Shown: positions 39,614-62,704, counted from the stretch's first letter. The stretch is DNA of 64,000 bases from Rhodoferax sp. (GCA_040400575.1 JBBAPX010000009.1:46334-110333); one strand, 5' to 3'. Notes: generated by a model not told the origin, from the sequence alone. Made by a program: numbers and translations.

Positions 39614-39655
39614 AAGCCCGGCTAAGACATCCTCTGATTTCAAAGAAAGCAAACC

Positions 39656-41026: not shown

Positions 41027-41041
41027 AACGTGCGTACTGCC

Positions 41042-44652: not shown

Positions 44653-44663
44653 ATGCGCAAGCG

Positions 44664-45833: not shown

Positions 45834-45882
45834 GGTGTTACATATCGCAAGGGTTTGGTCAACGCCCTACGATAACGCAGTT

Positions 45883-46617
45883 ATGCAATCTTTTTCCGAC
45901 AGTGCGCTTTTGGCCTTGCAGCTGCTGGTTTCGCTGGATCCCTTGTTTTTCGCTATTGTGGGCCGCTCTTTGGCGGTGAGTGCTTGCGCTTGCCTGCTGG
46001 CTTGCGGCCTGGGACTGGTGCTGGGCGCCTGGCTGGGTGTGGCCCGGTTTGCTGGGCGGGGCCTGGTGTTGACGCTGCTCAACACTGCGCTGGCCGTGCC
46101 CTCGGTGGTGGTCGGTTTGGTGGTGTATTTGCTGCTGTCGCGCTCGGGCCCCCTGGGCCATCTGGGCTGGTTGTTTAGCTTCAAAGCCATGGTGCTGGCG
46201 CAGGCGGTGCTGGTGCTGCCGGTAGCCACCGCATTGACGCGCCAGGTGGTGCAAGACGCCGAGCAGTCGCACGGAGAGCAACTGCAATCCCTGGGCGCGG
46301 GGCGCTGGATGCGCAGTGGCTTGTTGGCCTGGGATGAGCGCCATGCTTTGCTGGTCGTGCTGCTGGCAGCTTTTGGCCGTGCGATTTCCGAAGTCGGCGC
46401 GGTGATGGTGGTGGGTGGCAATATTGAAGGCTTTACCCGGGTGATGACGACCGCCATCGCCTTGGAGACTTCTAAAGGCGACTTGCCCTTAGCCCTGGCT
46501 CTGGGGTTTGCCCTGCTGATGGTGGTGCTGTTGCTCAATGCACTGGTAGCACTATTGCAACGTTGGGGGCAGGGCGGCGGCTTGCGCATGGGCACCTCGG
46601 GGGCGGTGGTGTTGTGA
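45883..46617 (+). CDS. tupB: Tungstate ABC transporter permease
   Basis: FGRAISEVGAVMVVGGNIEGFTRVMTTAIALETSKGD signature; start re-called to 45883. Confidence 0.88.
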   Translation: MQSFSDSALLALQLLVSLDPLFFAIVGRSLAVSACACLLACGLGLVLGAWLGVARFAGRGLVLTLLNTALAVPSVVVGLVVYLLLSRSGPLGHLGWLFSFKAMVLAQAVLVLPVATALTRQVVQDAEQSHGEQLQSLGAGRWMRSGLLAWDERHALLVVLLAAFGRAISEVGAVMVVGGNIEGFTRVMTTAIALETSKGDLPLALALGFALLMVVLLLNALVALLQRWGQGGGLRMGTSGAVVL

Positions 46618-47357
46618 ACGCACAAGTGCAGGTCGTGCAAGCCGGTGTGCAGTTCGGGCCGGATGGTCGCAGCCTCAGGCGCTGGCGCACAAACACAGTG
46701 GCTGCTTTGGAAGGAGTAAGCTTTTCCATCGCATCGGGTGAACGGCTAGCCTTGGTCGGCGCCAACGGCGCGGGTAAAAGTACCTTGCTGCGCCTGCTGC
46801 ACGGCTTGCTGATGCCAGGCGCGGGCCGCGTTCAGCCGCAAAGCGGCTTGCGCCAGGCGATGTTGTTTCAGCGGCCCCACATGCTGCGTATGCGCGTGGA
46901 CAGCCAATTGGCACTGGGCCTGTGGCTGCGCGGCACGCCCTGGCGGCAGGCGCGCCAGCGAATCACGGCGATCTTGGAGCAATTTGAGCTGCAGGAACTG
47001 GCCGCGCGCAAGGCGCACACTTTGTCTGGTGGGCAGCAGCAGCGCGTCGCCATGGCGCAGGCCTGGGCCATGGAGCCGCAAATGTTGTTGCTAGATGAAC
47101 CCACCGCCAGCCTGGATCCGCATGCCAAGGCTGAAGTGGAAAGTCTGTTGCGGGCTTTTTCGCAGTCACGACCACAGGCCAGCTTGGTATTTGCCAGCCA
47201 CAACCTAGGTCAGGTCAAACGACTGGCGACGCGGGTGCTGTATCTCGAGCGCGGGCGTTTGCTGGCTGACCTGCCCGTCGATGATTTTTTTGATTCTGAG
47301 TGCTTGCAGGCGCAATGTCCCTCGGCCTATTGGTTTGTAAAAGGAGAACACTTATGA
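46614..47357 (+). CDS. tupC: Tungstate ABC transporter ATP-binding protein
   Basis: GANGAGKST, LSGGQQQR, LLDEPT; GTGA overlap with tupB. Confidence 0.82.
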   Translation: MNAQVQVVQAGVQFGPDGRSLRRWRTNTVAALEGVSFSIASGERLALVGANGAGKSTLLRLLHGLLMPGAGRVQPQSGLRQAMLFQRPHMLRMRVDSQLALGLWLRGTPWRQARQRITAILEQFELQELAARKAHTLSGGQQQRVAMAQAWAMEPQMLLLDEPTASLDPHAKAEVESLLRAFSQSRPQASLVFASHNLGQVKRLATRVLYLERGRLLADLPVDDFFDSECLQAQCPSAYWFVKGEHL

Positions 47358-48163
47358 AACGTTTTTTATGGACATCTGTGGCGGCTATGGTTTTGTGTAT
47401 TGCGCCAATGGCGACGCTGGCCCAGACCCCTATCGTGATGGCCTCTACCACGTCTACCGAGCAGTCCGGATTGTTTGGGCACCTGTTGCCGGCCTTTAAC
47501 AAAGCGACGGGGGTAGAACTTAAGGTCGTGGCTTTAGGTACCGGTCAGGCTATCGACATGGGCCGACGCGGTGATGCTGACGTTTTGTTCGTCCACGACC
47601 AGGCAGCGGAGGAAAAATTTGTCGCAGAAGGCTTTGCACTCAAGCGCTTTGCAGTGATGTACAACGATTTTGTGCTGGTGGGCCCGGCAATAGACCCGGC
47701 GCAAACCAAGGGCGTGGACATTGTGCAAGCCCTGTCCAAAATCGCCGCAGGCAACAAGGCCTTTGTATCGCGTGGCGACAAAAGCGGTACGCATGCCGCC
47801 GAACTGCGCTTTTGGAAAATGACGGCTGCCGAGCAGGCCAAGGGTAGCGGCTACCGGGAGTGCGGCTGCGGCATGGGCCAGGCGCTCAATATGGCGGCGG
47901 CTACCGGCGCTTATGTGCTGACGGACCGAGGTACTTGGTTGAGCTTTAAGAATCGTGCCGATTTACAAGTGCTGGTGCAGGGCGACCAGCGTTTGTTCAA
48001 CCAATACGGCGTGCTGGCCGTGAACCCGGCCAAGCATCCGCATGTCAAGGCGCAGGACGCGCAAAAATTTGTTGATTGGGTGCTGTCCCCCGCAGGCCAG
48101 GCCGTGATCGCCGCCTACCGGATTGATGGGCAGCAGTTGTTTTTCCCGAACGCCGGAAAATAG
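47354..48163 (+). CDS. tupA: Tungstate ABC transporter substrate-binding protein
   Basis: MASTTSTEQSG (TTS), GTGQA, MYNDF, SRGDKSGTH..E, DRGTW; start re-called to 47354. Confidence 0.9.
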   Translation: MKRFLWTSVAAMVLCIAPMATLAQTPIVMASTTSTEQSGLFGHLLPAFNKATGVELKVVALGTGQAIDMGRRGDADVLFVHDQAAEEKFVAEGFALKRFAVMYNDFVLVGPAIDPAQTKGVDIVQALSKIAAGNKAFVSRGDKSGTHAAELRFWKMTAAEQAKGSGYRECGCGMGQALNMAAATGAYVLTDRGTWLSFKNRADLQVLVQGDQRLFNQYGVLAVNPAKHPHVKAQDAQKFVDWVLSPAGQAVIAAYRIDGQQLFFPNAGK

Positions 48164-48227
48164 GCAGCCGCGCGGCCGGAGCACGCCACGACCAAGTTAG
48201 CATCCCGCCCACATTATTGGAGCTTTC

Positions 48228-49217
48228 TTGGATACCTTTGCAAACGACAACATTACTCGCCGGCAGCTCTTACTTGGCGCCATCGCCTGTTTGCCAGGGC
48301 TGGCATGGGCCGATACCTGGCCCAGCAAGCCGCTGCGCCTGGTAGTGCCTTTCGCGCCCGGCGGCAGCTCTGAAATTGTGGCCCGCGCCCTGGCTGGTGA
48401 GATGGCCAAGACCATTGGGCAAAATGTGTTTGTAGAAAACAAGCCCGGGGCTGCAGGCAATATTGCGATGCAAGAAGTCGCCAATTCAACCGATGAACAC
48501 ACCCTCATCCTGGGCCATATCGGCACGCTGGCGGTCAACCCCTACATCTTTGCCAAACTGCCCTACGACCCGAACAAAGACTTCGCGCCGATCACGCTGG
48601 TTGCCAAAGTGCCCAGCCTGTATGTGGTGCACCCGGACCTGCCGGTAAAGAACCTCAAGGAATTTATAGCCTACGCCAAATCCAAGCCCGGCCAACTCAA
48701 TTACGGCTCTGCGGGCAACGGGAGCGCGGGTCATTTGGCCTTTGAATACCTCAAAATGATCACCGAAACCTTTATGGTGCATGTTCCCTACCGCGGTACA
48801 GGCCCCATGCTGACCGACTTGATGGCCGGGCGTTTGGATGCTGCTGCGGTGGGCGCGCCTGCGCTGCTGCAGTTCATCAAAGCGGGCAAGCTGCGCTGTA
48901 TCGCTACCGGCACGAGTGCGCGTTTGCCCCAGCTACCCGACGTTGCCACCGTGGCAGAGCAAGGCTTCAAAGGCTTTGAAATGACGCAGTGGTACGGTCT
49001 GATGGCCCCCAGCAAAATGGCCAAAGCCAATATCGACAAGCTGGAAAAAGAAGCCATGGCCGCGACCCGAACCAAGCTGGTTCAGGACAAACTCAGCCAA
49101 GACTCCGCGCTGGCCGTGGGCGATACCCGCGCTGAGTTTGAGGCCTTCATCAAACAAGAACAAGCGCGCTGGAAGCCCGTAATTGCGCGTGCCCAAATCA
49201 AGCCAGACGGCTTGTAA
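48228..49217 (+). CDS. Bug/TctC substrate-binding protein
   Basis: VVPFAPGGSSE, ENKPGAAG, YGSAGNGS, HVPYRG, WYGL. Confidence 0.93.
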   Translation: MDTFANDNITRRQLLLGAIACLPGLAWADTWPSKPLRLVVPFAPGGSSEIVARALAGEMAKTIGQNVFVENKPGAAGNIAMQEVANSTDEHTLILGHIGTLAVNPYIFAKLPYDPNKDFAPITLVAKVPSLYVVHPDLPVKNLKEFIAYAKSKPGQLNYGSAGNGSAGHLAFEYLKMITETFMVHVPYRGTGPMLTDLMAGRLDAAAVGAPALLQFIKAGKLRCIATGTSARLPQLPDVATVAEQGFKGFEMTQWYGLMAPSKMAKANIDKLEKEAMAATRTKLVQDKLSQDSALAVGDTRAEFEAFIKQEQARWKPVIARAQIKPDGL

Positions 49218-49616: not shown

Positions 49617-51779
49617 ATGAGACACATTAACTCCCCCTTCGCATTTATTGTTTTGGTTGCTGCTATTGGACAAGCGTACGCTCAATCCAACACCACACCG
49701 GTCCTAAGTAAAGTTGGCGAAGAGGTCAAAGCCGATGACGCTCAACTGCCCACGGTGACAATTACCACCGGTACCCGAAGCGCCAAGTCTGTGGACAAGA
49801 TTCCAGGTGCAGTTAACGTTGTTTCTAAAGAAGAACTCGCGCATACGCTTGCGCTCACTGAGGATGCTACTGCCGTGCTGGCCCGCACGGTTCCAGGCTA
49901 TGCGGAGTCTTCGCAGGCTATGGCAAACGCCGGTGAGAATCTGCGCGGACGCGTTGCATTGCGTCTTCTCGATGGTGTGCCACAGGGTTCGCCTTTGCGA
50001 GAGGGAAGTCGCAGCGCCAGTTTCACGGATATGGGGCTTGTTGGGCGCATTGAGGTTATCAACGGGCCATCCGCTTCAGAGGGTATCGGCGCGGCTGGCG
50101 GGATCATCAATTACATCTCTAAAGTGCCAACCAAGATGGGCGATGAAATCACCCTGATTTCGCGCTACACCAGCCAGTTTCGAGATGACAGCGCAGGGTG
50201 GAAGCTGGGACTCAACTATGCGCACAAGGATGATACCTTTGACCTTTTAGCTGGCATCTCGCAGATTGATCGCGGCATGAGTTATGACGCCAACGGGCGT
50301 CGTCAAGGAATGAATGCCAGCGGTTCCGTCTTGGACTCAACTGCCAACAATTACTTTGCTAAGGGTGGTTTCAATTTTGGTGCGAACAAGGAGCAGCGCT
50401 TACAGCTCACTGCGAGTAGTTTCAAGATCCTGGGCAAAGGGAACTACATGGCGCTCGACGGCGATCGAGACACGGGCGAAACCAATAGCGCCCAGCGTGG
50501 CCAACCGCTTGGAGCTAAAACTGAATTCAATGACTTTAAGCAGGTCAACCTGTCATATAAAAATGACGAATTTCTTGGGGGCACATTAACCGCTGATGCT
50601 TATATGGCAGATCAAGCGATGCGATTTGTGGCGGAATTAGATAGTGGCAAGCAGGACCCGCTTTTTGCACCCGTAGGTACTCTTATTGAGCAGTCAGAAA
50701 TTGACTCCAGAAAAAAGGGGCTTCGTACTTCTTGGACACGCCAAGATATTTTGGGGCTCAATGGGATGGAACTACGCGCTGGTCTCGATTTAGTGCAAGA
50801 CACTGCGGAACAGCGACTTGCACTTACCAATCGAACCTGGGCGCCGCCGGTGAAGTACAGCAGTGTCGCGCCTTATGCGCAACTTTCTTATGACATCGGG
50901 ATGCTCACGCTGAGCGGTGGATACCGCAGGGAGGGAGGGCAGCTCTTGGTTGACACGTTTACCACGATTTATGCGAACAACCGTTCCCTAGTGGAAGGTG
51001 GAACGCGCGATTACACGGTAGATTTACCCAACATTGGCGCCATAGTGCGTCTACCGCAAGGCTGGTCGGTTTTTGCGTCCTATGGCAAGGGATTTACGCT
51101 GCCCAACGTGGGCATTGCGCTCAGGAATATCAATCGTCCCAATGTGAAAGTCGCTGATATTGATGGTCTGGAAGCAGTGGTAGTGGATAACACTGAAATT
51201 GGCTTCAATTGGCGCGGTGCCATGGGAAATCTGGGCGCTTCAAGCTACCAGTCTAAGTCCGCTCTTGGTGCCAGTGTGTCGATTAGTTCTGTGACGAATG
51301 ACTTTGTGATTAACCGGGCGCCGGTGGACATTACCGGCTTTGAATTTTCTGGTGGGCTTAACCTCAACAAGCAGTGGAAAGCAAGCGCTCTTTACTCACA
51401 GATTCGTGGAAAAACTTCCTATAGTTCTAGCGGCGGCGCACTGGACAAGGAAATGGGTGTACTCGACATCAGCCCTGATAAGTTGGGTCTCTCGGTAACA
51501 TGGAAGCCAGTGGACAAAGCGGAAGTGACGCTAGGTGCAACACGATTATTCTCGCGTGACATCAATGTTGGGCGGAACAACGAGGAACATACTACGGGAT
51601 ACACACTTTTAGACTTGGGATCGAATTATGACTTTGGCCGTTATGGTCGACTTTCACTAGGTGTAGAAAACTTGGAAAATAGGCAATACATCTTGAGCTG
51701 GTCGCAGCTGCCTGGTTTCAAGAATTTCTTTGCAGGACGTGGCCGCGTAGTTTCAATTTCGCACGAAATTAAGTTCTAA
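49617..51779 (+). CDS. TonB-dependent outer-membrane receptor
   Basis: Signal peptide, TonB-box-like TVTIT, plug motif LRG...LLDGVP..RIEVINGP...G.GAAGGIINYISK, terminal Phe. Confidence 0.93.
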   Translation: MRHINSPFAFIVLVAAIGQAYAQSNTTPVLSKVGEEVKADDAQLPTVTITTGTRSAKSVDKIPGAVNVVSKEELAHTLALTEDATAVLARTVPGYAESSQAMANAGENLRGRVALRLLDGVPQGSPLREGSRSASFTDMGLVGRIEVINGPSASEGIGAAGGIINYISKVPTKMGDEITLISRYTSQFRDDSAGWKLGLNYAHKDDTFDLLAGISQIDRGMSYDANGRRQGMNASGSVLDSTANNYFAKGGFNFGANKEQRLQLTASSFKILGKGNYMALDGDRDTGETNSAQRGQPLGAKTEFNDFKQVNLSYKNDEFLGGTLTADAYMADQAMRFVAELDSGKQDPLFAPVGTLIEQSEIDSRKKGLRTSWTRQDILGLNGMELRAGLDLVQDTAEQRLALTNRTWAPPVKYSSVAPYAQLSYDIGMLTLSGGYRREGGQLLVDTFTTIYANNRSLVEGGTRDYTVDLPNIGAIVRLPQGWSVFASYGKGFTLPNVGIALRNINRPNVKVADIDGLEAVVVDNTEIGFNWRGAMGNLGASSYQSKSALGASVSISSVTNDFVINRAPVDITGFEFSGGLNLNKQWKASALYSQIRGKTSYSSSGGALDKEMGVLDISPDKLGLSVTWKPVDKAEVTLGATRLFSRDINVGRNNEEHTTGYTLLDLGSNYDFGRYGRLSLGVENLENRQYILSWSQLPGFKNFFAGRGRVVSISHEIKF

Positions 51780-51792
51780 GCGAATTAACTAC

Positions 51793-53100
51793 ATGCGCCT
51801 GTTTTCCAGGCTGATCATCGGCAGCGCCATCATATTCACGGCCTCTTGGGGTGTACCTACCCTGAATGCGCAAGACATGCAGGCGGGCGCGCTGTACAAG
51901 GAAAGTGGTGTGCGAGCCCGCCCCGCTAAAGACGCTTATCAGTCACTTTTGGCAGGAGCCACGCAAGACAAGGGCTATCTTGGTGGCGTGACCTTGGTAG
52001 CCCAAAAAGGGCAGGTGCTGCATTTGCAAAGTTTTGGTTACCGGGACTTGATGCGGCAGGACCCCATGTCGAGTGACGCGATCTTTCGCATTTACTCGAT
52101 GACCAAAAGTGTTGCCGCCGTAGCAGCCTTGGTTTTGGTTGACGATGGGAAACTCAATCTTGACGCGCCGGTGTCAGGGTATCTCCCAGAGTTTTTGTCG
52201 ATGCAGGTCATGGTAGGCGGGTCTGCTGATAGGCCGCAATTGAGACCAGCCCAGCGTCCGATTACCGCCCGGCAACTGCTAACGCATACCGCTGGCTTCG
52301 CCACGGGTGGCATCGGCATGGAAGAGGCATCCAAGTTGCTGGGACGTCAGGAGCTTCACAGGTCAACGGATCTGCGTGACTTTGCCGGACGGGCCGCACG
52401 CTCCCCGCTGCAAGCTGAGCCCGGCACGCGTTTTCTTTACGACGGTGTCAATTACCAGGTGCTGGGGCGACTGATTGAAGTGGTCAGTGGTTTGCCGCTG
52501 GATGTGTTTATGCAGGAGAGAATTTTCACACCACTGAAGATGTCAGACACTGGTTTTTCGGTATCGGCCGCCAAGCGCGCAAGGATTGTTGACATTACAA
52601 CCATGGGACCTGCCGGCCATTTGGTGCTAGCGGCAGGTCCTTCTGCGGCTAATCCCGGTGCCATGCTCAACCCCTATGTCAGTGCCGCAGGGGGCATGTA
52701 CTCCACGGCAAGCGATTTTTTGCGGTTTTGCCAGATGCTGCTTCAAGGGGGGCAACTGGACGGCGTTGTGGTTCTAAGTGCCAAATCGGTGCAAACAATG
52801 CTTTCCAATCAGCTGGTGCAATCAAATCCGGATCGCGGCCTACAGCCTACAGAATCGGGGCAGGGCGAAGGTCACGGTCTAGGTGGATGGGTGTTGCTTG
52901 AGGGGCATCCTCAGCGGCGCTCCGGATCCGTCGGATCTTTCGGCTGGTCAGGAGCCGCGTCAACCTACTTCATGATCGACCCCAAACAGCAGTTGGTGGC
53001 GATATTGTTGCTCCAACATTTGCCGGGGGATGCGAGTAATGAACTGCCCAAATTGCAGTTTCCGTTTTATCAGCGGGTCTACCAGACCCTCAGTCCATAA
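51793..53100 (+). CDS. Exported serine hydrolase, beta-lactamase fold (family VIII esterase-like)
   Basis: Signal peptide; FRIYSMTK (SxxK), LLTHTAG, F.Y, FGWSGAAST. Confidence 0.9.
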   Translation: MRLFSRLIIGSAIIFTASWGVPTLNAQDMQAGALYKESGVRARPAKDAYQSLLAGATQDKGYLGGVTLVAQKGQVLHLQSFGYRDLMRQDPMSSDAIFRIYSMTKSVAAVAALVLVDDGKLNLDAPVSGYLPEFLSMQVMVGGSADRPQLRPAQRPITARQLLTHTAGFATGGIGMEEASKLLGRQELHRSTDLRDFAGRAARSPLQAEPGTRFLYDGVNYQVLGRLIEVVSGLPLDVFMQERIFTPLKMSDTGFSVSAAKRARIVDITTMGPAGHLVLAAGPSAANPGAMLNPYVSAAGGMYSTASDFLRFCQMLLQGGQLDGVVVLSAKSVQTMLSNQLVQSNPDRGLQPTESGQGEGHGLGGWVLLEGHPQRRSGSVGSFGWSGAASTYFMIDPKQQLVAILLLQHLPGDASNELPKLQFPFYQRVYQTLSP

Positions 53101-53103
53101 TTC

Positions 53104-55323
53104 ATGGCACTCTCTCCCCGCAAACACGCGCATGCGTCAGCTCAACCCAATCTCCCAAAAATGAACCCAGACGATGATTTAGATCGCCCTCCAATGACCA
53201 AGACGGAATATAAATTTTCCCATGTCACCACAGGACGCTATTTGCCAACGCCCGGTAAGGCGCCGGGATGGCCATTCGCGGAGATCGGTCACTGGAAAAT
53301 GGATGTGCTTGGGACCGCCGATGACTGGATTCGGGAACTGCGCGACTGGCGCTCTGAACACTTAACGCGTATTGGCTACGACGACAGTAACTACCGTCGA
53401 CCCGCTCTACAGTGGGCGCAATCAAATTTTGTGCATGCACAAATGATGGTGGAAGATCGTTATTTCTTTGATTCCGCATCTGGAAAATACACCGTCGACC
53501 GCTATTTGGATGACCTTGAGTTGCGGTTTGGTGGTATCGACAGTGTGCTGATTTGGTACGTTTATCCCAATATCGGCATAGATGACCGCAACCAAACTGA
53601 CCTTGCCCATGACATGCCCGGTGGCCTAGCAGGCCTGCGCGAGGCGGTTCATGCCTTTCATCAACGTGGCGTGCGTGTTTTCTTACCCACTAAACCGTGG
53701 GACAAGGGGACTCGTGATCTGGGGCAACAAGACTGGCACGCTATCGCCAAAATCCTGAAGGCCGTAGGCGCAGATGGTATCAACGGTGACACCTACAACG
53801 GTGTGCCACGTGCCTTCTTCGATGCCTGTGAAGCAATTGGTTGCCCGGTGGTGTTACAGCCAGAGTCAACAATTTCGGCAGAGGAGGCGTTGATTTGGAA
53901 TGTGCAAAGCTGGGGCAAAAAAGTGCCAGCCGACGTGATCCCTAGCGTCGCCAAATTCAAATGGTTGGAGCCGCGCCACATGATCAATGTTGAAAATCGC
54001 TGGAGCCGCGACCGCACCAATGACTTTCAATTCATGTTTTTTAATGGCATCGGCTACAACGCTTGGGAAAACGTTTGGGGGATTTGGAATCAGCTGACCC
54101 CACGGGATGCGCAGAGCCTAAAACGCATCGCCGCATTGCAGCGGCAATTTGCCCCTTTGTTGGTGAGTCAGGAATGGCGGCCTTATTTTGCATGCTTGCA
54201 AACTGGCGTTTTTGCAAGTTTATTTCCCTCTGACAAGTGCCAATTGTGGACTATTGTCAATCGCAACGAATATGAAATTGAAGGCGAACAGTTGGTACTA
54301 CCGCACGAAGTCGGAGCGGAGTATTTTGACGTTTGGAGTGGGGTTAAGTTGCAAGCCCGAATGGATGCTGCAGGCAATGCGGTAATTAGTCTGAAGCTGG
54401 AGTCGCTGGGCTACGGCGCAGTTTTGCGTGTAGCGGCTGGTGCCGAGGTTCCCGGCTTAGTGGCTTATCAGGAGCGTGCTGCCCAATTCGCGATAACTCC
54501 GCTTCGTAGCCTGTCTTCTGCCTGGCACTCCCTGGCGCAGCACCTGGTACCTATCGAACGTACAACCGTCGCGGATGTACCACCCACAGGAATGCTTCTG
54601 ATTCCAGCCGCCGACTTTGATTTCGTGGTCAACGGGATTGAAGTCGAGGGACAAACTTGGGAAGGCTTGGACTTCCAATACCCATGGGAGAGTTGCGCGC
54701 GGCGCAGTCACCGCAAACGGATGCAATTGAGTGCGTTTTTCATTGACCAGACTCCGGTAACTAATGCGCAGTACAAAGCCTTTATGGTCGCTTCACGTTA
54801 TCAGCCGACTGATGGGCATAATTTTTTGCGAGACTGGATCAATGGTGCGCCGCTGAAGGGGTGGGACAACAAACCAGTGACTTGGGTTGGCATTGAGGAC
54901 GCTCGTGCCTATGCGACTTGGGCGGGTAAACGGTTACCGCACGAGTGGGAATGGCAATATGCCGCGCAAGGAGTGGACGGTCGGAACTATCCGTGGGGTA
55001 ATGCGTGGAGGGAGGATGCCGTTCCCAAAGTGAACCGTAGCCGAACCTTGCGGCCACCTGATGACGTACAAGCGCACCCACTAGGTGCCAGCCACTTTGG
55101 CGTTCTGGACCTGATCGGAAACGTCTGGCAGTGGACTGACGAATACCGCGATGACCATACCCGCGCGGCGGTCCTTCGTGGCGGAAGCAGTTTCCAGGCG
55201 CAAACCTCACACTGGTATTTCCCACAAGCGTATCGCCTAGACCAGCATGGGAAGTACCTACTGATGGCTCCCTGTAAAGACCGCTCGGGCACCATTGGTT
55301 TTAGGTGTGTCGTCGATGCGTGA
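53104..55323 (+). CDS. Multidomain protein: N-terminal putative glycoside-hydrolase-like barrel plus C-terminal FGE/SUMF1-fold domain (start may be 53161 or 53194)
   Basis: C-terminus VTNAQY, PVTWV...DA.AYA.WAGKRLP.E.EW, YPWG, DL.GNVWQWT, RGGS, IGFRC; N-terminus GADGINGDT. Confidence 0.75.
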   Translation: MALSPRKHAHASAQPNLPKMNPDDDLDRPPMTKTEYKFSHVTTGRYLPTPGKAPGWPFAEIGHWKMDVLGTADDWIRELRDWRSEHLTRIGYDDSNYRRPALQWAQSNFVHAQMMVEDRYFFDSASGKYTVDRYLDDLELRFGGIDSVLIWYVYPNIGIDDRNQTDLAHDMPGGLAGLREAVHAFHQRGVRVFLPTKPWDKGTRDLGQQDWHAIAKILKAVGADGINGDTYNGVPRAFFDACEAIGCPVVLQPESTISAEEALIWNVQSWGKKVPADVIPSVAKFKWLEPRHMINVENRWSRDRTNDFQFMFFNGIGYNAWENVWGIWNQLTPRDAQSLKRIAALQRQFAPLLVSQEWRPYFACLQTGVFASLFPSDKCQLWTIVNRNEYEIEGEQLVLPHEVGAEYFDVWSGVKLQARMDAAGNAVISLKLESLGYGAVLRVAAGAEVPGLVAYQERAAQFAITPLRSLSSAWHSLAQHLVPIERTTVADVPPTGMLLIPAADFDFVVNGIEVEGQTWEGLDFQYPWESCARRSHRKRMQLSAFFIDQTPVTNAQYKAFMVASRYQPTDGHNFLRDWINGAPLKGWDNKPVTWVGIEDARAYATWAGKRLPHEWEWQYAAQGVDGRNYPWGNAWREDAVPKVNRSRTLRPPDDVQAHPLGASHFGVLDLIGNVWQWTDEYRDDHTRAAVLRGGSSFQAQTSHWYFPQAYRLDQHGKYLLMAPCKDRSGTIGFRCVVDA

Positions 55324-57154
55324 AGTTCCCCATATTGAGTTGCATGGCTTACTTGGACAGGCGCTCATTGCAAGTAAAAGCGGGAGGTTGTCTCGTTTCA
55401 TCGTTGGTGCGCAAAGCCCAGCGATCGCAATGTTCGCGCCGGAGCCGGTTAGCCGCAATTTGGAAGGTGATTGGTATGGCGAGCACGCAGGTAAATGGCT
55501 TTATGCGGCGGCCCGTGCAGCCAAGAGAAGCGGCGACCGAGGTCTGTCGGACAATGTGCAGGCGGTAGCCGACTACTTGGTCCGCATGCAAAGCAGTGAC
55601 GGCTACTTGGGAACCTATGCGCCTGTACGCCGGTTTACCCGTAAATCTTCGCCTGGGCCCGTGACATGGGATGGTGCGCCAGAAAAGCGAACCTGGGATA
55701 TCTGGGTCCACAGCTACATGCTTTTAGGCTTGCTGGAAGTCCATAAGAATTTTGCCCGACCCAGCTACCTATTGGCAGCCTGCAAGATAGCCGACTTGTG
55801 TTGGAATATCCTGCATGAGGGGGATATCAACATCACCGAACTTGGGAATCACCACGGGCTTTCGGCCACCGTATTGTTAGACGCTGCAGTGGAATTGTTC
55901 ATGGCGACAAGTGAACCCAGGCATCTGGCACTGGCTGAACTCATTTTGCAGCAAGCCGATCAGCGGCCAGAGTTGGCATTGTTGCGCAAGTCGCTGGGCG
56001 GGGCGGACGCCTCTGAAATCTCAGCGGGTAAAGCCTACCAACTCTGCTGGAATCTAGTGGGTTTGGCCAAACTCTACAAAGTAACTGGCGATCCTCGCTA
56101 TTTGCAGGCCGTGCTGAATATATGGACAAGTATTCGCCTGCATCACCTGACGCTTGGCGGAGGCCCTTGGGGCGGGGTGGGACTGCGTTCGCGCGAGGTA
56201 TTTAACCATCACAGTGTTTTCAGTCCCACGGGCTACGTGGAAACCTGCTCTATCCTCGCCTGGATCCAGCTAAATCGGGAGTTGCACTTAATCACTGGCG
56301 AGGCGAAGTACGCAGAAGAAATCGAGTGTTCTGCTTACAACGACTTGCTCGGTGCCATGGACCCGAATGGTGAGGACTGGTGTTATTACTCTTTCCCCAA
56401 TGGTCGCCGTGTTTACACCACCTATTGGCGTTGCTGCAAGTCAAGTGGCGCTATGGCACTAGAGGAGTTACCTGGCGCTGCCTATGTGCAGACCGATGAA
56501 CGGACGCTGACGCTTAACTTATATGGGCCTAGTACGGCTTCATTTTGGTTTGAAGACGCTGGCAAGGTGAACTTTCAGCAGCACACCGCCTATCCCTATG
56601 ACGGATACGTTCAAATTACGGTAGATCCGGCCCGAGCGGCTAGATTCCTGATTTGTGTCCGCATTCCGTCATGGGCGCACGGCGCAAGTGTCCAAGTCAA
56701 TTCAATCAGTTGCCCAGGCAATGTCACTGCGGACGCGTACTTCGCGATAGACCGACTTTGGCGGTCTGGTGACATCTTGGCCTTAAATTTTCCAATGGAG
56801 CCAGTATTACATCGGCGTTCGAGCTTCAGCTTACAAGAATCTAAGGCGCCGGATGGCGCTGCTGTCATACAAGAGGTGATGCACCTAGATTACTGTGCGA
56901 TAACCCGAGGACCCTTGGTGTTTTCGACGGGTCTTATTGATGGATATAAAAGCGCAGAGACGGTGCGACTCGCGGCAGAGTCGGCAAGTGAGGTCCTGGA
57001 GTTGTTGGCAAGTGCCGGTGCCGATGACCCGCCGGCAATTCGTCTGCATTTGGCAGAACGATCGGCGCTGACCTTTGAGCCTTATTTTTCTGCTGGTGGA
57101 CGCGCAGACGGTACTTGGCGGCTGACTTGGATGCAATTGGCACCCAGTATTTAG
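55316..57154 (+). CDS. GH127-family (beta-L-arabinofuranosidase/aceric acid hydrolase-like) cysteine glycosidase
   Basis: GKWLYAA, DGYLG, GKAY, ETC and CC metal/nucleophile motifs, YPYDG, RIPSWA, RGPLV; start re-called to 55316. Confidence 0.85.
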   Translation: MREVPHIELHGLLGQALIASKSGRLSRFIVGAQSPAIAMFAPEPVSRNLEGDWYGEHAGKWLYAAARAAKRSGDRGLSDNVQAVADYLVRMQSSDGYLGTYAPVRRFTRKSSPGPVTWDGAPEKRTWDIWVHSYMLLGLLEVHKNFARPSYLLAACKIADLCWNILHEGDINITELGNHHGLSATVLLDAAVELFMATSEPRHLALAELILQQADQRPELALLRKSLGGADASEISAGKAYQLCWNLVGLAKLYKVTGDPRYLQAVLNIWTSIRLHHLTLGGGPWGGVGLRSREVFNHHSVFSPTGYVETCSILAWIQLNRELHLITGEAKYAEEIECSAYNDLLGAMDPNGEDWCYYSFPNGRRVYTTYWRCCKSSGAMALEELPGAAYVQTDERTLTLNLYGPSTASFWFEDAGKVNFQQHTAYPYDGYVQITVDPARAARFLICVRIPSWAHGASVQVNSISCPGNVTADAYFAIDRLWRSGDILALNFPMEPVLHRRSSFSLQESKAPDGAAVIQEVMHLDYCAITRGPLVFSTGLIDGYKSAETVRLAAESASEVLELLASAGADDPPAIRLHLAERSALTFEPYFSAGGRADGTWRLTWMQLAPSI

Positions 57155-57155
57155 A

Positions 57156-58058
57156 TCAGGGGAGTGGTCGTCCGGTCACTTCAGCCTGGCGTAATGCGAC
57201 ATTTTGGGCTTCGCGCAGGAATGCCTTAACAAGCCTGATTCGGATGGTGGAGCGCGACCAAAGAACCCCGATGCGCCTTGGATCGAAGGGCTCCGGCAGC
57301 AGTAATTTGATGAGGTTCAGACCTTCCGGCCAAGGCCGTGCCCAATCAGGTACCAGAGAAACGCCCAAGCCACGGTCTACCATGACCGCGATGGCGTTGA
57401 GCGCGTTCATCTCAAAGCGCTCTTGGGGGACGATCCCAACCATCCGCAGGTATCGATCCGCTTGATGCCCACCCCACTGGTTGCGGTCATACCGGATGAA
57501 GGGTTCGGTGGCCAAGAGATCGTGTGGATCGCGACCTTTCATGCTCTTGGGTGCCAATACGACCAACGGTTCCTCGCGAAGTACCAACCATTCAACTCTT
57601 TTGGAAAGCGTAAAAGGGGCCTCCAAAACAATGGCTGCATCTAGTTCGCCGCTCTCTACCGAGGGGTACAAATCTGCGGAATATCCGGGCTTGATATAGA
57701 CCTTGATACGGGGGTGTCGACGTACCATGCCAGCCAAAATATCCGGCAAAATTCCAGTTAATGCATTCGTTCCAGCGCCAATTCTGAGTTCGCCAAAGGT
57801 GTCATTGTCATTGGCAGCTGAATGCAGATCGGTGACATCTCTGAGCAGATTTCGCGCACGCTCCAAGATCCGAGTGCCTGCCTCGGTAATGGACACTGTC
57901 CGCCCTGCTCTAGTGAGTAAGGGAGCGCCAATTTCCCTCTCTAAGGTACGTATTTGTTGAGCCACCGTGGCCGGCGTAATGTTGAGAAGGCGTGCCGCTG
58001 ATGCCATAGATCCATGGTCAACCACCGCCACAAAGGTATACAAAAATTGGGTATCCAT
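57156..58058 (-). CDS. LysR-family transcriptional regulator
   Basis: HGSMASAARLLNITPATVAQQIRTLEREIG HTH; G.GVSLVP. Confidence 0.95.
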   Translation of the reverse strand: MDTQFLYTFVAVVDHGSMASAARLLNITPATVAQQIRTLEREIGAPLLTRAGRTVSITEAGTRILERARNLLRDVTDLHSAANDNDTFGELRIGAGTNALTGILPDILAGMVRRHPRIKVYIKPGYSADLYPSVESGELDAAIVLEAPFTLSKRVEWLVLREEPLVVLAPKSMKGRDPHDLLATEPFIRYDRNQWGGHQADRYLRMVGIVPQERFEMNALNAIAVMVDRGLGVSLVPDWARPWPEGLNLIKLLLPEPFDPRRIGVLWSRSTIRIRLVKAFLREAQNVALRQAEVTGRPLP

Positions 58059-58167: not shown

Positions 58168-59037
58168 ATGCGAAGCAAACTATTCGTTCCTGCCACGCGC
58201 GCTGATCTGTATTCCAAAGCGTTGGCCAGCCAGGCGGATGCCATTTCATTCGATCTGGAGGACTCAGTAGCCGAAGTTAGCAAGCAAACTGCACGGGAGC
58301 GCGTGCGCGAATTCTTGATGTCTGAATCGGCACGCTCGAGTTCTAAAACGCTCATCGTGCGCGTTAACGCAATGCGTACGCCGCATTTTGAGGCGGATGT
58401 CTTTGCCGTGGTCCAGACCGGGCTTGCGATCTTGAACATTCCAAAGTGTGAGTCAGGGCAACAAGTTCAAGATGGCCTGCAGGTCATCGCTTGCGCGGAA
58501 GCCTTGAACCGTAATTCCAGCCCGGTGTCCATTCTGGCTAACGTTGAAACGCCAAAGGCTTTGCGCTGTGCCTTCGATATTGCCAGTGCGGACGCCCGAA
58601 TCGTCGGGCTTCAGATAGGTTATGCCGACTTGTTTGAACCGCAAGGAATCAGGAGAGACGATGCGCTGAATGTTCATGCTGCGTTATTTGCGCTTCGAAT
58701 GGCTGCGGCTGAAGCCGGCGTCTTCGCATATGACGGTGCATTTCCCGATTTGCAGGACGCTAGCGGATTTCGTGCGGAGTGTGAGATGGCTAGAAAAATG
58801 GGTTTTATAGGAAAAACTTGTATTCATCCAGGTCAGATTGAGACGGTAAACCAAATCTTCGGCCCAGCCCAACACGAGATTGATTTTGCATTGCGGGTAC
58901 TGGCCGCCGTAGGAGATACGAAAAATATGAACCTTGGCGCGTTCCAATTGGAGGGAAGAATGATTGATAGGCCGTTTATCCAAAGGTCCAGAAGAATTGC
59001 CGATTTAGCGCAAAAGATGGGGATATTGTCCCTATGA
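58168..59037 (+). CDS. CitE-like CoA-ester lyase (HpcH/HpaI aldolase/citrate lyase family)
   Basis: RSKLFVPA, FDLEDS, VRVN, PK.ES, VET, GYADL, GKTCIHPGQI, GRMID.P. Confidence 0.92.
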   Translation: MRSKLFVPATRADLYSKALASQADAISFDLEDSVAEVSKQTARERVREFLMSESARSSSKTLIVRVNAMRTPHFEADVFAVVQTGLAILNIPKCESGQQVQDGLQVIACAEALNRNSSPVSILANVETPKALRCAFDIASADARIVGLQIGYADLFEPQGIRRDDALNVHAALFALRMAAAEAGVFAYDGAFPDLQDASGFRAECEMARKMGFIGKTCIHPGQIETVNQIFGPAQHEIDFALRVLAAVGDTKNMNLGAFQLEGRMIDRPFIQRSRRIADLAQKMGILSL

Positions 59038-60236
59038 GCGAAACTTTGAGCAAGGACGAGGCGCCGCGTGGGCCGTTGACTGGTATCCGCGTGCTGGATC
59101 TTAGCGCCTACATAGCTGGCCCTTACGGTTGCACGCTACTTGCTGACATGGGTGCAGAAGTAATCAAGATTGAACCACCCAGCGGTGACAACCTTCGCCG
59201 ATATCCGTCGACCTTAGAAGCCGAAAGCCGGGCTTTTCTTGGAATTAACCGTAGCAAGCGCGGATTGGTTTTGGACCTGAAAAAAGAACAGGGTTTGCTG
59301 GTCCTCGATCGCATGCTCGGCTCGGCCGACGTACTGGTTCACAATTTCCGACCCTCTGTTGCGCCGCGCTTGGGTATCGCCTATGAGAGATTCCAGGCCA
59401 GTCATCCGCGGCTGATCTATTGCGTGGTCAATGGTTATGGCGAGTCAGGCCCTATGAAAGACTATGCTGGCTATGACCAGGTTTTGCAGGCAATGACCGG
59501 AATTTGCGCTATGCAGGGCAAGCACGGGCAACCACCAGAAATTGTGTACGGCTCTGTGGTGGATTACTACGCTGCAGCAATGGTCGCAAGCGGTGTCAGT
59601 GCCGCACTGTTTGAGCGCGAGCGAAACAATCGTGGCCAATATGTTGGCGTCTCCTTGCTAAGAAGTGCGTTGGCTATGCAATCGGCGCGGTTCATTTGGG
59701 CTGAAAGTGAAAGCCGTGATATCGGTCGCGACATGCGCTCTGGAGGGGTCACGGGTCTGCATCCGGCGCGAGAGGGCTTCATCTATCTATCCGCCAACAC
59801 GCCGCATTTTTGGCGCGCACTTTGTGAAAAAGTCGGACTCAGCTCTTTGGCCGACGATCCGCGGTATGACAGCGTGCGCAAGCGCGCCGATTGTGCCAAC
59901 GAAATCTTGCCTCAGCTGCACAATGCCTTGCTGTCCCATACCGCTCTCGAGTGGGAACAGATATTTGCGCAGGATGTACCCAGTGCGGCCGCACGTTCAA
60001 TTGCTGATATGTTCGACCACCCGCAAGTGCTTGCCGAGGAAATGGTGACTAATCTGGAGCATCCGTCGGTTGGGCGCTACAAGGGCCTTACCAAGGCAAT
60101 CAAATTTAGTAAAACGCCGGGCCCTTCCCCGTTCGCTGCACCCACCCTCGGTGAGCATTCAGACGATGTGTTAGCCGAGTGCGGGTATTCGCATAATGAA
60201 ATTGCGCAATTGCGCCAACAGGGCGTCATCAAGTGA
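59034..60236 (+). CDS. Class III (CaiB/BaiF) CoA-transferase
   Basis: VLDLSAYIAGP, GAEVIKIE, NRSKR, HNFRP, GYD, catalytic-Asp region VVDYYAA, APTLGEH; ATGA overlap. Confidence 0.93.
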   Translation: MSETLSKDEAPRGPLTGIRVLDLSAYIAGPYGCTLLADMGAEVIKIEPPSGDNLRRYPSTLEAESRAFLGINRSKRGLVLDLKKEQGLLVLDRMLGSADVLVHNFRPSVAPRLGIAYERFQASHPRLIYCVVNGYGESGPMKDYAGYDQVLQAMTGICAMQGKHGQPPEIVYGSVVDYYAAAMVASGVSAALFERERNNRGQYVGVSLLRSALAMQSARFIWAESESRDIGRDMRSGGVTGLHPAREGFIYLSANTPHFWRALCEKVGLSSLADDPRYDSVRKRADCANEILPQLHNALLSHTALEWEQIFAQDVPSAAARSIADMFDHPQVLAEEMVTNLEHPSVGRYKGLTKAIKFSKTPGPSPFAAPTLGEHSDDVLAECGYSHNEIAQLRQQGVIK

Positions 60237-62704
60237 TTCAACTAAGGCCGTGTCAATTTATGAAAGGTATTTTCTACCTCGCATTGTCTTTGCGCAGAAC
60301 TGCCGTGGCCCTATGGGTAGCTGGTGTTGGCATGGGTGTGTGCTTGCCTACATTGTCTGCCCATGCAGGCAATCTTGTGACCCTGAAGACGGGTACGCTG
60401 GGGCCTGCGCCTGGCAATGGGCTGGTACGCACTTTGGCTGCTTTGGATGGCCAGCTCCTCGTGCTGGGACAGGATGCAAGTTGGGAGTTCGATGAAGCTA
60501 GCCAGTCCTGGAAGAAGGTCGACTGGCACGCGCAACAACCGATACAAGCCTTAGCATTGGACAAACGGCAGGCTTATGTTTTTCTTGGCACTGAGCGCGA
60601 TGGAGTGGCGCAGCGGGTTCAAAAACTGACATTAGAGTTGGGCCGCTTAGGCTCACTACCTATGCCTTCCTTGCCCATGCACTTGCTTGATTTACAGGCG
60701 GCGATGATGGGCCCAGTCCTTTACGTTGTAGGCAACGATAAGGATGGAACTTTTACGCAGTTCGCATTGGACACGAGTGCAGCGCAACCCCATTGGACCG
60801 CTCATCGCGTAACGCAGCTCAAGGGAAAACCGACCTCGCTCGTCGGTCAGCGTTCCGCTTTGTATGCCACGGTGAGGCCGGCCGGTGGTGCTAGAGACCA
60901 CCTGTGGCAATGGACGCCATCGGGCGGATGGATCGAAAAAAATGCACTATCTGGCACTGTGGTTCAACATGCCGCGCGGCCAGCCGGTCAGGCGCACGTC
61001 ATCTATTTAGTCCAACCGTTAGCTGCGCTTTCTCCTGCTCCTGCAATGATGATGTATCACACCATTACGGGCTCGTGGGCGACATTGGATGATCCCAAGG
61101 CCCTAGGGGCTTTTGATGGCACAGCCTGGCGCAATGGCATCGCTTGGCAGCACCCTGCCAGCGCAGGCGGAGTTGAAATTGACTTCGCAGAAATCGAGTC
61201 TGGGAAACTACTGCTTACCTGGCTGGATTGGGTGGTCATTGTTTTCTACCTGACGGCTATGTTAGGTATGGGGCTGTATTTTTACCTGCGTGAAAAGCGT
61301 ACTTCAACCGCTGATTTTTTCGTCGGCGGACGTTCTATCCCCTACTGGGCGGCAGGCGTCAGCTTGTATGCAGCGAACACCAGCTCAATTAGTTACATTG
61401 CCATTCCAGCCAAGGCGTTTGAAACCAACTGGCAATACCTAACCAACAACCTAATCGCTGTACTTGGTTTGATGTTTGTTGCGATTTGGATAGTACCGGT
61501 CTTGCGGCGACTCGATTTGATGTCAAGCTTTCAATACCTTGAAACCCGCTTTCATCCCGTCATACGCACACTGGCAAGTGCTTTGTTTATGGCCGTACAA
61601 ATTGGTAGTCGGATGAGCATTATTCTTTTCTTGCCGTCTTTAGCAATCGCTACGATGACTGGTATTGACGTCATATGGAGCATACTGATCATGGGCGTGT
61701 TCACCATGATCTATACCGCTTTGGGCGGTATGAAAGCAGTCGTCTGGACCGATGTAGTCCAGCTGGTGGTCAAAATGGGAGGAATATTTTTTACTATCGG
61801 ATTTGTCATCTATATGCTCGATGGCGGCGCGGGTGAATTGATAAAAGTAGCCCAGGCCGAAGAGAAGACAAAGCTATTTGATTTCAGCTGGGACCTGACC
61901 AAGGCCACCGTTTGGGGCTTTTTGTTCCTCGTGCTATTTGACGTGGTTCTCACCTTTCCAAAGGACCAGGTGCTGATGCAGCGTGTGCTGTCCACGCGTT
62001 CGGACAAGGATGCAGAACGGTCTGTTTGGACATTTGCCGCCATCATGATTCCAGGGGGATTTTTATTCTATGGCGTTGGTACTGCCTTGTATGTCTACTA
62101 CAAGAATCACCCCGAGAGGATGAACCCCTTGCTCACCATCGATGCGACATTCCCACTATTCATCGCTGCGGAGTTACCTATGGGCGTGCGTGGTCTGATC
62201 GTAGCGGGAATTCTGGCTGCTGCGATGGCGACGCTGTCGAGCATCATGAACAGTGTCGCTACGCTTGCGTCGGTAGATTTTTATGAAAAATGGGCGAAAA
62301 ATCCAACACCAAAATCTAGCGTTCATTTTGCTGAGGTGATGACCGTGGTGGCAGGCATTCTTGGAATGGGTGTCGCACTGTTATTGACGCGCTACGACAT
62401 CCATTCCTTATTTGATGTATCGATTGAGTTAGCTGGTCTATTGGGTGGCGGATTCGCTGGCGCCTACACCTTGGGCATGTTTACAAGGCGTGCTAATTGG
62501 CAGGGCGTTGCAATCGGTGTCGGCGTCAGTATCACATTGACCACTGTAGCTTGGTTCATGAACCTGGTACACCCATATTTTTATCTCGCTATTTCAATCT
62601 TTGTTTGCATCGCAGTGGGCTATATCGCCAGCTGGATGTTCCCGGCGCCATCTCCAAAGTCTCTCGAAGGTCTGACCATTTATTCTAAAAATTCTTCGCT
62701 TTGA
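60233..62704 (+). CDS. Sodium:solute symporter (SiaT-like) with exported N-terminal Kelch-like beta-propeller (start 60233 or 60260)
   Basis: Signal peptide ending AHA, about 290 aa beta-rich domain, then LDWVVIVFY..FFVGGR..WAAGVS, YLETRF, GGMKAVVWTD, DQ..MQR, AAAMATLSS.MNS. Confidence 0.85.
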   Translation: MIQLRPCQFMKGIFYLALSLRRTAVALWVAGVGMGVCLPTLSAHAGNLVTLKTGTLGPAPGNGLVRTLAALDGQLLVLGQDASWEFDEASQSWKKVDWHAQQPIQALALDKRQAYVFLGTERDGVAQRVQKLTLELGRLGSLPMPSLPMHLLDLQAAMMGPVLYVVGNDKDGTFTQFALDTSAAQPHWTAHRVTQLKGKPTSLVGQRSALYATVRPAGGARDHLWQWTPSGGWIEKNALSGTVVQHAARPAGQAHVIYLVQPLAALSPAPAMMMYHTITGSWATLDDPKALGAFDGTAWRNGIAWQHPASAGGVEIDFAEIESGKLLLTWLDWVVIVFYLTAMLGMGLYFYLREKRTSTADFFVGGRSIPYWAAGVSLYAANTSSISYIAIPAKAFETNWQYLTNNLIAVLGLMFVAIWIVPVLRRLDLMSSFQYLETRFHPVIRTLASALFMAVQIGSRMSIILFLPSLAIATMTGIDVIWSILIMGVFTMIYTALGGMKAVVWTDVVQLVVKMGGIFFTIGFVIYMLDGGAGELIKVAQAEEKTKLFDFSWDLTKATVWGFLFLVLFDVVLTFPKDQVLMQRVLSTRSDKDAERSVWTFAAIMIPGGFLFYGVGTALYVYYKNHPERMNPLLTIDATFPLFIAAELPMGVRGLIVAGILAAAMATLSSIMNSVATLASVDFYEKWAKNPTPKSSVHFAEVMTVVAGILGMGVALLLTRYDIHSLFDVSIELAGLLGGGFAGAYTLGMFTRRANWQGVAIGVGVSITLTTVAWFMNLVHPYFYLAISIFVCIAVGYIASWMFPAPSPKSLEGLTIYSKNSSL

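Follow-up and report, generated by a model that had tools for sequence, protein, structure and literature searches.

A Kelch propeller fused to a SiaT-type symporter in Rhodoferax sp.: a candidate non-sialic sister family of SiaF

What does a transporter of the SiaT type import at a locus that lacks the genes for sialic acid use, and what is the propeller fused to it for? The question is raised by a 64,000-nucleotide stretch of DNA from Rhodoferax sp. (GCA_040400575.1, JBBAPX010000009.1:46334-110333; hereafter the window), in which a single gene on the plus strand (60233–62704) encodes a signal peptide, a periplasmic Kelch-like domain and a solute:sodium symporter (SSS). A preliminary description, made from the sequence alone, had read the protein as a built-in anomerase/lactonase or binding domain feeding a transporter for a sugar acid other than N-acetylneuraminic acid (Neu5Ac). 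The protein is best called a non-sialic sister family of SiaF. On balance it probably acts as a cation-coupled (most likely Na+-coupled) inner-membrane importer of a non-sialic, carboxylate-bearing sugar or glycoside, the tethered propeller capturing or presenting the substrate, and would form the uptake step of a nine-gene catabolic unit.

Architecture, binding pocket and ancestry of the fusion protein

Translation of 60233–62704 gave an uninterrupted open reading frame of 823 codons, counted from a GTG that overlaps the stop codon of the upstream CoA-transferase gene as GTGA; full-length relatives are known. An alternative ATG start (MKGIF...) is located at 60260, 27 nt downstream of the GTG, and is used by a 94%-identical relative (P0002). 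The four strings from which the beta-rich repeats had been described (GPVLYVVG, SALYATV, LWQWTPSGGW and MYHTITGSW) were all found in the translation. The N-terminus is a hydrophobic helix (residues 12–37 in the model) that ends in a signal-peptidase-type site between AHA and G, and it was read as a predicted signal peptide spanning M10–A45 (60260–60367, plus strand). SSS proteins of the SiaT type have an N-out topology (PMC8461474). The signal peptide is consistent with this topology, and together with a periplasmic domain and an N-out first transmembrane helix (TM1) it makes a coherent layout.

The transporter domain, with a LeuT fold, comprises residues 328–810 (61214–62662, plus strand) and matches Pfam PF00474 SSF (E 5e-39, 134.8 bits against a cut-off of 22.8) and TIGR00813 (213.9 bits, cut-off 184). 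Its best match among PDB sequences was Proteus mirabilis SiaT (5nv9), with an E-value of 4e-80 over 479 residues. The roles of the SiaT residues were taken from the structure paper (Wahlgren et al. 2018, PMC5931594) and mapped through the HMMER alignment, and the conservation of the pocket was counted over 78 species-level members of the family. The SiaT alignment given in the preliminary description proved to be right: A56-TTLSSIT-63 pairs with A380-ANTSSIS-387, the unwound segment of TM1 (SiaT 56–63; 61370–61393, plus strand), and SiaT R135, which forms the salt bridge to the substrate carboxylate, corresponds to R460 in GSRMSI (61610–61612, plus strand).

Of the ten Neu5Ac-binding residues of SiaT, the three carboxylate ligands are kept, namely S60 as S384, T63 as S387 and R135 as R460. 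The other seven are replaced and fixed. The contact to the anomeric hydroxyl (T58) is N382, the N-acetyl contacts F78, G81 and F243 are Y402, N405 and V567, the glycerol-tail contact Q82 is N406, and the water-mediated contacts N247 and Q250 are V571 and T574. The altered binding residues of the preliminary description therefore amount to the replacement of every Neu5Ac-specific contact around a retained Ser/Ser/Arg carboxylate site. L59 is also changed, to T383. New charged residues (D570, K577 and D578) are present near the pocket, the latter two within the clade-invariant TM6 signature LTFPKDQV (residues 573–580; 61949–61972, plus strand), which replaces SiaT Q249–D256 (QQFTASQD, containing Q250). 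The residues S384, S387, Y402, N405, N406, R460, D507, V567, V571, T574, K577 and D578 are each present in 78/78 members, and N382 in 77/78. Other groups of Kelch–SSS proteins show differing signatures at the pocket positions.

The Na3 site of SiaT is kept, with D182, S345 and S346 present as D507, S669 (78/78) and S670 (57/78). Since the carboxylate triad and the Na3 equivalents are retained, the substrate is likely to carry a carboxylate, and a second ion site (Na3) is likely as well. At the Na2 site, A380, T383 and A663 supply the backbone ligands and T667 is kept at the position of SiaT S343, while the equivalent of S342 is A666. As the S342A substitution inactivates SiaT (PMC5931594), the Na2 site is regarded as remodelled, and Na+ coupling as likely but uncertain. 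T383 may compensate for A666. In the 78 members, A666 (nt 62228–62230) is observed only together with T383 (nt 61379–61381), the raw counts, in which phylogeny is ignored, being 54 T/A, 20 T/S, 4 V/S and 0 V/A.

The N-terminal domain (residues 46–323; 60368–61201, plus strand) is a periplasmic six-bladed Kelch propeller, diverged and cyclically permuted relative to NanM. In a full-length AlphaFold model built on a 22-sequence alignment, the propeller was confident and the membrane domain had a predicted local distance difference test (pLDDT) score below 50; the N-domain was accordingly re-modelled alone. With 22 relatives, this gave 24 beta-strands arranged as six four-stranded blades, with a mean pLDDT of 89.9 and a predicted TM-score (pTM) of 0.88. 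The best 50 Foldseek matches of this model in the PDB were all six-bladed Kelch propellers (E ~1e-9, TM-score 0.6–0.74, probability 1.00), among them KLHL12, Keap1, KLHDC2 and LZTR1. The Kelch assignment, for which AlphaFold and Foldseek had been proposed as checks, is thus borne out.

The domain is also kin to NanM, as had been suspected. The best match of the N-domain family profile against all PDB sequences was E. coli YjhT/NanM (2uvk; E 2.3e-6), and the middle part of the domain (LPxLPxxL...LYVAG) aligns with NanM blade 1. Residues 46–325 gave no Pfam match at E<=1 and no NCBIfam match at E<=0.01, PF24996 (NANM), TIGR03548 and TIGR03547 included; a canonical SiaF (P0270) matches TIGR03548 at 2e-58 (198 bits, below the model cut-off of 243 bits). 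SiaF has been described as a 'cyclically permutated mutarotase' joined to an SSS with 13 transmembrane helices (Severi et al. 2021, PMC8461474). For comparison, a canonical SiaF set was assembled from proteins of Bacteroidota and Planctomycetota that were positive for NANM, Kelch and SSF. The N-domains of this set align to NanM in two pieces (SiaF 149–350 with NanM 22–239, and SiaF 25–124 with NanM 246–344). The N-domain of the fusion clade is collinear with that of SiaF over its whole length (hhalign probability 98.7%, E 2e-16), and its residues 144–203 align with NanM 22–81, which is the same permutation register as in SiaF. By sequence comparison, the propeller and the permuted mutarotase domain of SiaF are homologous, the former having diverged and being shorter by approximately 100 residues.

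As an architecture, the propeller–SSS fusion is not new, having been published as SiaF (ST5; PMC8461474). In both proteins, a signal peptide is followed by a six-bladed Kelch propeller of the same register and then by a SiaT-like SSS domain, in which the equivalents of the carboxylate-binding Ser/Thr/Arg and of D182 are kept. The fusion protein differs from SiaF in belonging to a separate clade, in its shorter N-domain, in the unconserved GE..PG.R motif, in an invariant pocket of its own and in its non-nan, nine-gene context. SiaT shares the equivalents of S60, T63 (as Ser), R135, D182, S345 and S346, but has no N-terminal domain, and is separated from the fusion by T58N, L59T, F78Y, G81N, Q82N, F243V, N247V, Q250T, S342A and S343T. 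NanM/YjhT (2uvk) is likewise a periplasmic six-bladed Kelch propeller, and the LPxLPxPL...LYVAG blade is common to both; however, NanM forms soluble homodimers and carries a dimerisation hairpin, which is missing from the fused propeller, a permuted, monomer-sized domain in which the Glu and Arg of NGEAKPGLRT are unconserved. The NanM–NanZ (ST4) fusions of Akkermansia are an independent case of a mutarotase-type periplasmic propeller placed N-terminal to a secondary transporter (PMC8461474), although that transporter belongs to the major facilitator superfamily and its context is one of sialic acid.

The role of the propeller

The NanM motif NGEAKPGLRT contains Glu209 and Arg215, reportedly the catalytic pair (Severi et al. 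2008). The corresponding GE..PG.R motif was found just before TM1 in 10/14 canonical SiaF proteins, in line with this assignment, and in 0/18 members of the fusion clade. In the window protein, the segment directly preceding TM1 is AEIESGK (residues 319–325; 61187–61207, plus strand), which hhalign pairs with the catalytic strand. The program aligns SiaF SGEIKPG with clade AEIESG by opening an 11-residue gap, and the alignment at this point is uncertain. Read in this way, the counterpart of the catalytic Glu is E in 29, Q in 24 and another residue in 6 of the 59 parsed members, Lys follows in 57/59, and in several members both acidic positions of the strand are Gln. A strand-by-strand alternative pairs the SiaF motif with QHPASAGG and shows no conservation. 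Under either alignment, the sequences indicate that the NanM Glu/Arg dyad is unconserved in the clade.

Because the catalytic pair is unconserved, the most likely task of the propeller is to capture the substrate, select it or present it to the outward-facing vestibule, and not to perform mutarotation of the NanM type. Of the three functions offered earlier for this domain, binding is thus the stronger option and an anomerase the weaker one. A lactonase was rejected, as the fold retrieved by Foldseek is Kelch and not of the SGL/PON type.

The alternative that survives best, which we consider possible but doubtful, is that the propeller is still an active anomerase for a new substrate and hands the transported anomer to the symporter, as has been proposed for NanM in SiaF. 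Such an enzyme would use E320 and K325, or the conserved Q206, Q253, H255 and T279. Its homology to the SiaF mutarotase domain and the shared permutation register are in its favour, as are the Glu and Lys of AEIESGK kept in the window protein and its near relatives. Most of the propeller positions kept in >=93% of members are Trp or Gly with a structural role, and the others are Q206, G252-Q253-A254-H255 and I278-T279. The polar GQAH patch and Q206 are located at strand-A ends near the central channel, where they would suit catalysis. Furthermore, a cyclic hemiketal or hemiacetal acid would gain from anomerisation. However, the aligned Glu is so often replaced by Gln, in some members at both acidic sites, while the transporter pocket is invariant, and the N-domain carries no NANM or TIGR03548 signal. 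It also evolves several-fold faster than the transporter, with a median pairwise identity over the 78 members of 35.4%, compared with 80.8% for the transporter.

This asymmetry in rate within one gene (60368–61201 as against 61214–62662) is also observed across phyla, the Opitutus homologue being 36% identical in the N-domain and 84% in the transporter. Relaxed constraint and diversifying selection on the periplasmic domain are both candidate causes.

The gene cluster and the candidate substrate

The genes around the symporter were compared within 10 kb in 65 loci with full flanks. In the window, all but one are on the plus strand. A TonB-dependent receptor of the siderophore-receptor type, not SusC-like (49617–51779; 61/65 loci), is followed by a periplasmic serine hydrolase of the beta-lactamase fold, an esterase or amidase with a signal peptide (51793–53100; 53/65). 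Next are a 739-aa protein without a signal peptide (53104–55323; 61/65), in which 530 N-terminal residues precede a C-terminal domain resembling formylglycine-generating enzyme (FGE)-type sulfatase-modifying proteins, and a glycosidase of glycoside hydrolase family 127 (GH127), also without a signal peptide and with a probable start at M8 (55295–57154). The latter was found in at least 45/65 loci, a lower bound because the gene lies at the edge of the flank. A divergent LysR-type regulator is encoded on the minus strand (57156–58058; 56/65). A CitE-like acyl-CoA lyase of the HpcH/HpaI fold (58168–59037) adjoins the symporter in 64/65 loci, and a family III CoA-transferase (59034–60236; Pfam CoA_transf_3, E 1e-113) overlaps the genes on either side. 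A ribokinase-like PfkB kinase is present near the symporter in 55/65 loci.

The gene set recurs in Pseudoxanthomonas, Roseateles, Opitutus and several metagenome-assembled genomes, spanning Beta- and Gammaproteobacteria and Verrucomicrobia. Orthologues of the CoA-transferase (~70% identity) were found by the cluster in 5/5 other genomes tested, directly after GH127 in four and, in Pseudoduganella, between the lyase and the symporter, as in the window. Unbiased clustering of the open reading frames of the loci yielded no further recurrent family, and nothing was conserved past the CoA-transferase in the genomes tested. The genes thus make up a closed, conserved nine-gene cluster of TonB-dependent receptor, esterase, kinase, FGE-domain protein, GH127, CoA-transferase, CitE-like lyase, LysR regulator and fusion symporter. 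Within the cluster there is no dehydrogenase, dehydratase, hydratase or nan gene. The lyase is nearest to CitE, RipC and malyl-CoA lyases and not to pyruvate aldolases, and the kinase of the relatives scores 252 bits on a ribokinase model (cut-off 300). Signal peptides are limited to the receptor, the esterase and the fusion protein.

These assignments suggest an order of events in which the siderophore-type receptor would bring an esterified precursor over the outer membrane, the periplasmic esterase would trim it, and the fusion protein, with its exported propeller tethered to TM1, would import the acidic product. Once inside, this product could be dismantled by the cytoplasmic GH127 and FGE-domain proteins. 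Of the parts released, the ribokinase-like kinase would phosphorylate a pentose, and the family III CoA-transferase and CitE-like lyase would cleave a beta-hydroxy acid. More tentatively still, and with a probability we would place well below even, the propeller may be a mutarotase turned into a non-catalytic tethered capture module at the entry of an undescribed nine-gene pathway in more than 400 species, one that scavenges an esterified, carboxylated pentofuranosyl compound through a siderophore-type receptor and ends in CoA-dependent C–C cleavage. As for the earlier proposal of a sugar acid other than Neu5Ac, its negative half is upheld by the pocket contacts and the missing nan genes, while the sugar acid itself is suggested by the pocket together with the gene context.

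Four observations weigh against a capture-and-import role within this pathway. The membrane domain of the full-length model has low confidence, such that no docking of the propeller on the transporter can be read from the prediction. The Na2 residue S342 is Ala in 54/78 members, and Na+ coupling may therefore be altered. The window protein keeps E320 and K325 at or near the aligned catalytic positions, and on this alignment mutarotase catalysis may persist in this protein. Finally, the cluster in the window is without the kinase found in most relatives. The only homologue of the kinase in the genome (60% identity) is the ribokinase of an operon that also encodes a nucleoside hydrolase and a PnrA-type ABC system (G000:C3:246000-260000, L096).

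A different ulosonic acid is an unlikely substrate, although not an unreasonable one. The importer would in this case carry 3-deoxy-D-manno-octulosonic acid (Kdo), 3-deoxy-D-lyxo-heptulosaric acid (Dha), KDN or another 2-keto-3-deoxy acid of this kind, either as the free acid or within a small glycoside, derived from lipopolysaccharide or rhamnogalacturonan II (RG-II), and the propeller would handle its anomers. The SiaT/NanM ancestry, the carboxylate site retained beside the anomeric centre, the polar pocket and the many plant-associated hosts are all compatible with this, and GH127 includes beta-L-arabinofuranosidases and, by an NCBIfam match, the aceric-acid hydrolase that acts on RG-II. 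However, the lyase resembles CitE-type acyl-CoA lyases and is accompanied by a CoA-transferase, rather than being a pyruvate aldolase of the NanA/HpaI type; the cluster has no gene resembling a sialidase or a Kdo hydrolase, and its receptor is of the siderophore and not the SusC type.

Slightly less probable again is the import of a simple beta-hydroxy di- or tricarboxylate resembling malate, citramalate, citrate or 3-hydroxy-3-methylglutarate, with the glycosidase and kinase serving a sugar that enters separately. In 58–64/65 loci, the lyase gene adjoins or overlaps that of the symporter, and the placing of the CoA-transferase between them in the window and in Pseudoduganella would also suit such a substrate. 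K577 could pair with a second carboxylate, and SSS relatives carry monocarboxylates. Against this, a sugar-like ligand is what the Kelch/NanM-type domain and the Asn/Thr/Asp-rich, SiaT-type pocket suggest. GH127 and the FGE-domain protein, both cytoplasmic, need an imported glycoside, and the cluster has no other conserved inner-membrane transporter. We thus favour the import of a carboxylated sugar or glycoside over both of these substrates.

Several more specific substrates were weighed and not adopted for lack of evidence. They were Kdo or Dha disaccharides from RG-II, aceric-acid glycosides, GlcN-malate of the bacillithiol type, citrate-type siderophores, fusarinine-type ester siderophores and polyhydroxybutyrate oligomers. 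A search of a literature library for the function of the cluster (GH127/DUF1680, FGE, ribokinase, CoA-transferase and citrate lyase) and for follow-ups on SiaF returned nothing relevant.

Further features of the locus were recorded. The beta-lactamase-fold hydrolase is present in 53 loci, and an esterase of PF00756 (Fes/feruloyl-esterase type) in 9, a possible non-orthologous displacement; if so, the ester bond in the substrate would be what matters. In Roseateles, the PF00756 esterase (L007, 13391–14434) directly follows LysR. The 739-aa FGE-domain protein is ~69% identical across the loci, and its 530 N-terminal residues (53104–54690) had no counterpart among Pfam families, even at E<=10, or among PDB sequences. 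A consensus scan for promoters and terminators gave matches no more frequent than in shuffled sequences. Upstream of the cluster, 38642–49217 encodes two TctC (Bug) receptors, an MmgE/PrpD protein, a D-2-hydroxyacid dehydrogenase, an FtsX-type permease and a molybdate/phosphonate-like ABC system with a ModE/LysR-like regulator, a region typical of Burkholderiales-type betaproteobacteria.

Kinship and distribution of the family

A maximum-likelihood tree of the transporter domain was built from 56 sequences, with SiaT and SiaX references left out. The fusion family came out as a single clade (support 100/100) whose internal branches are very short. A long branch separates it from all the NANM-positive fusions and their unfused relatives, to which its transporter is 33–42% identical; its nearest outgroup was P0068. 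Severi et al. selected their set by linkage to nan genes (PMC8461474), and the clade falls outside their coverage for this reason.

That the protein is an ordinary SiaF/SiaT importer of Neu5Ac with its nan partners elsewhere is very improbable, even though SiaT is its best solved homologue, its architecture is SiaF-like (PMC8461474) and the carboxylate triad is kept. The genome, which is 99.98% complete, has neither NanE nor NanA above cut-off, and this extends to the whole genome the absence of nan genes reported earlier for the locus. In the cluster, none of NanA, NanE/NanE-II, NanK or a sialidase was found across the 65 loci. T58, F78, G81, Q82, F243, N247 and Q250 are all changed and fixed, and mutation of Q82 abolishes transport by SiaT (PMC5931594). 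The clade is separate from SiaF, and its context is without a sialidase, a nan-type lyase or an epimerase, unlike true SiaF; a canonical SiaF from Arenibacter sits amid a NanA-type lyase, a BNR sialidase, a GlcNAc 2-epimerase and SusC/D. The hosts also differ. SiaF is found in gut Bacteroidota and the Planctomycetes–Verrucomicrobia–Chlamydiae (PVC) group, whereas the fusion clade is found in soil and rhizosphere bacteria of the Beta- and Gammaproteobacteria and Opitutales.

When the N-domain alone was used as the query, 72 representatives were retrieved among 1.84 billion, a small number because this domain diverges fast. The transporter half retrieved more than 120 protein clusters at >=79% identity, all of ~780–840 aa, and relatives are encoded in 417 species-representative genomes. 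The main hosts are Burkholderiales (Roseateles, Pelomonas, Pseudoduganella, Massilia and Usitatibacter), Lysobacterales/Xanthomonadales (Pseudoxanthomonas, Lysobacter, Luteimonas and Dyella), Steroidobacterales and Opitutales, and many of the carriers are soil or root isolates. The same architecture in so many genomes of several phyla, together with the uninterrupted frame, establishes the fusion as genuine and refutes its joining from two genes by a frameshift, mis-assembly or gene-calling error, for which no supporting evidence was found and which retains a negligible probability.

Other members of the wider group were also noted. Steroidobacter flavus has two fusion paralogues (P0172 and P0173) on one 3.5-Mb contig, both ~81% identical to the transporter half of the window protein. 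Further Kelch–SSS subclades have pocket signatures of their own (P0096 at L089, P0220–P0222, P0235, P0252 and P0266); in the locus of the P0096 group, SusC/D are accompanied by a BNR sialidase-like protein, an FAD oxidoreductase and a sulfatase, a setting that suggests other acidic-sugar substrates. P0225 and P0239 are unfused close relatives of the Kelch–SSS fusions.

To our knowledge, discussion of SiaF-type enzyme–transporter fusions has until now been confined to sialic acid and host-associated bacteria, and no such fusion has yet received a biochemical characterisation. In the family described here, free-living bacteria of soil and roots would have put a SiaF-like architecture to use for another substrate. 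With twelve pocket residues frozen in 78/78 members beside a drifting propeller, it offers a natural experiment on whether the fused propeller serves in catalysis or in capture and gating. Moreover, no other member of the nine-gene cluster is as specific a handle on it as the transporter, and the identity of the transporter's ligand would give the whole pathway a function.

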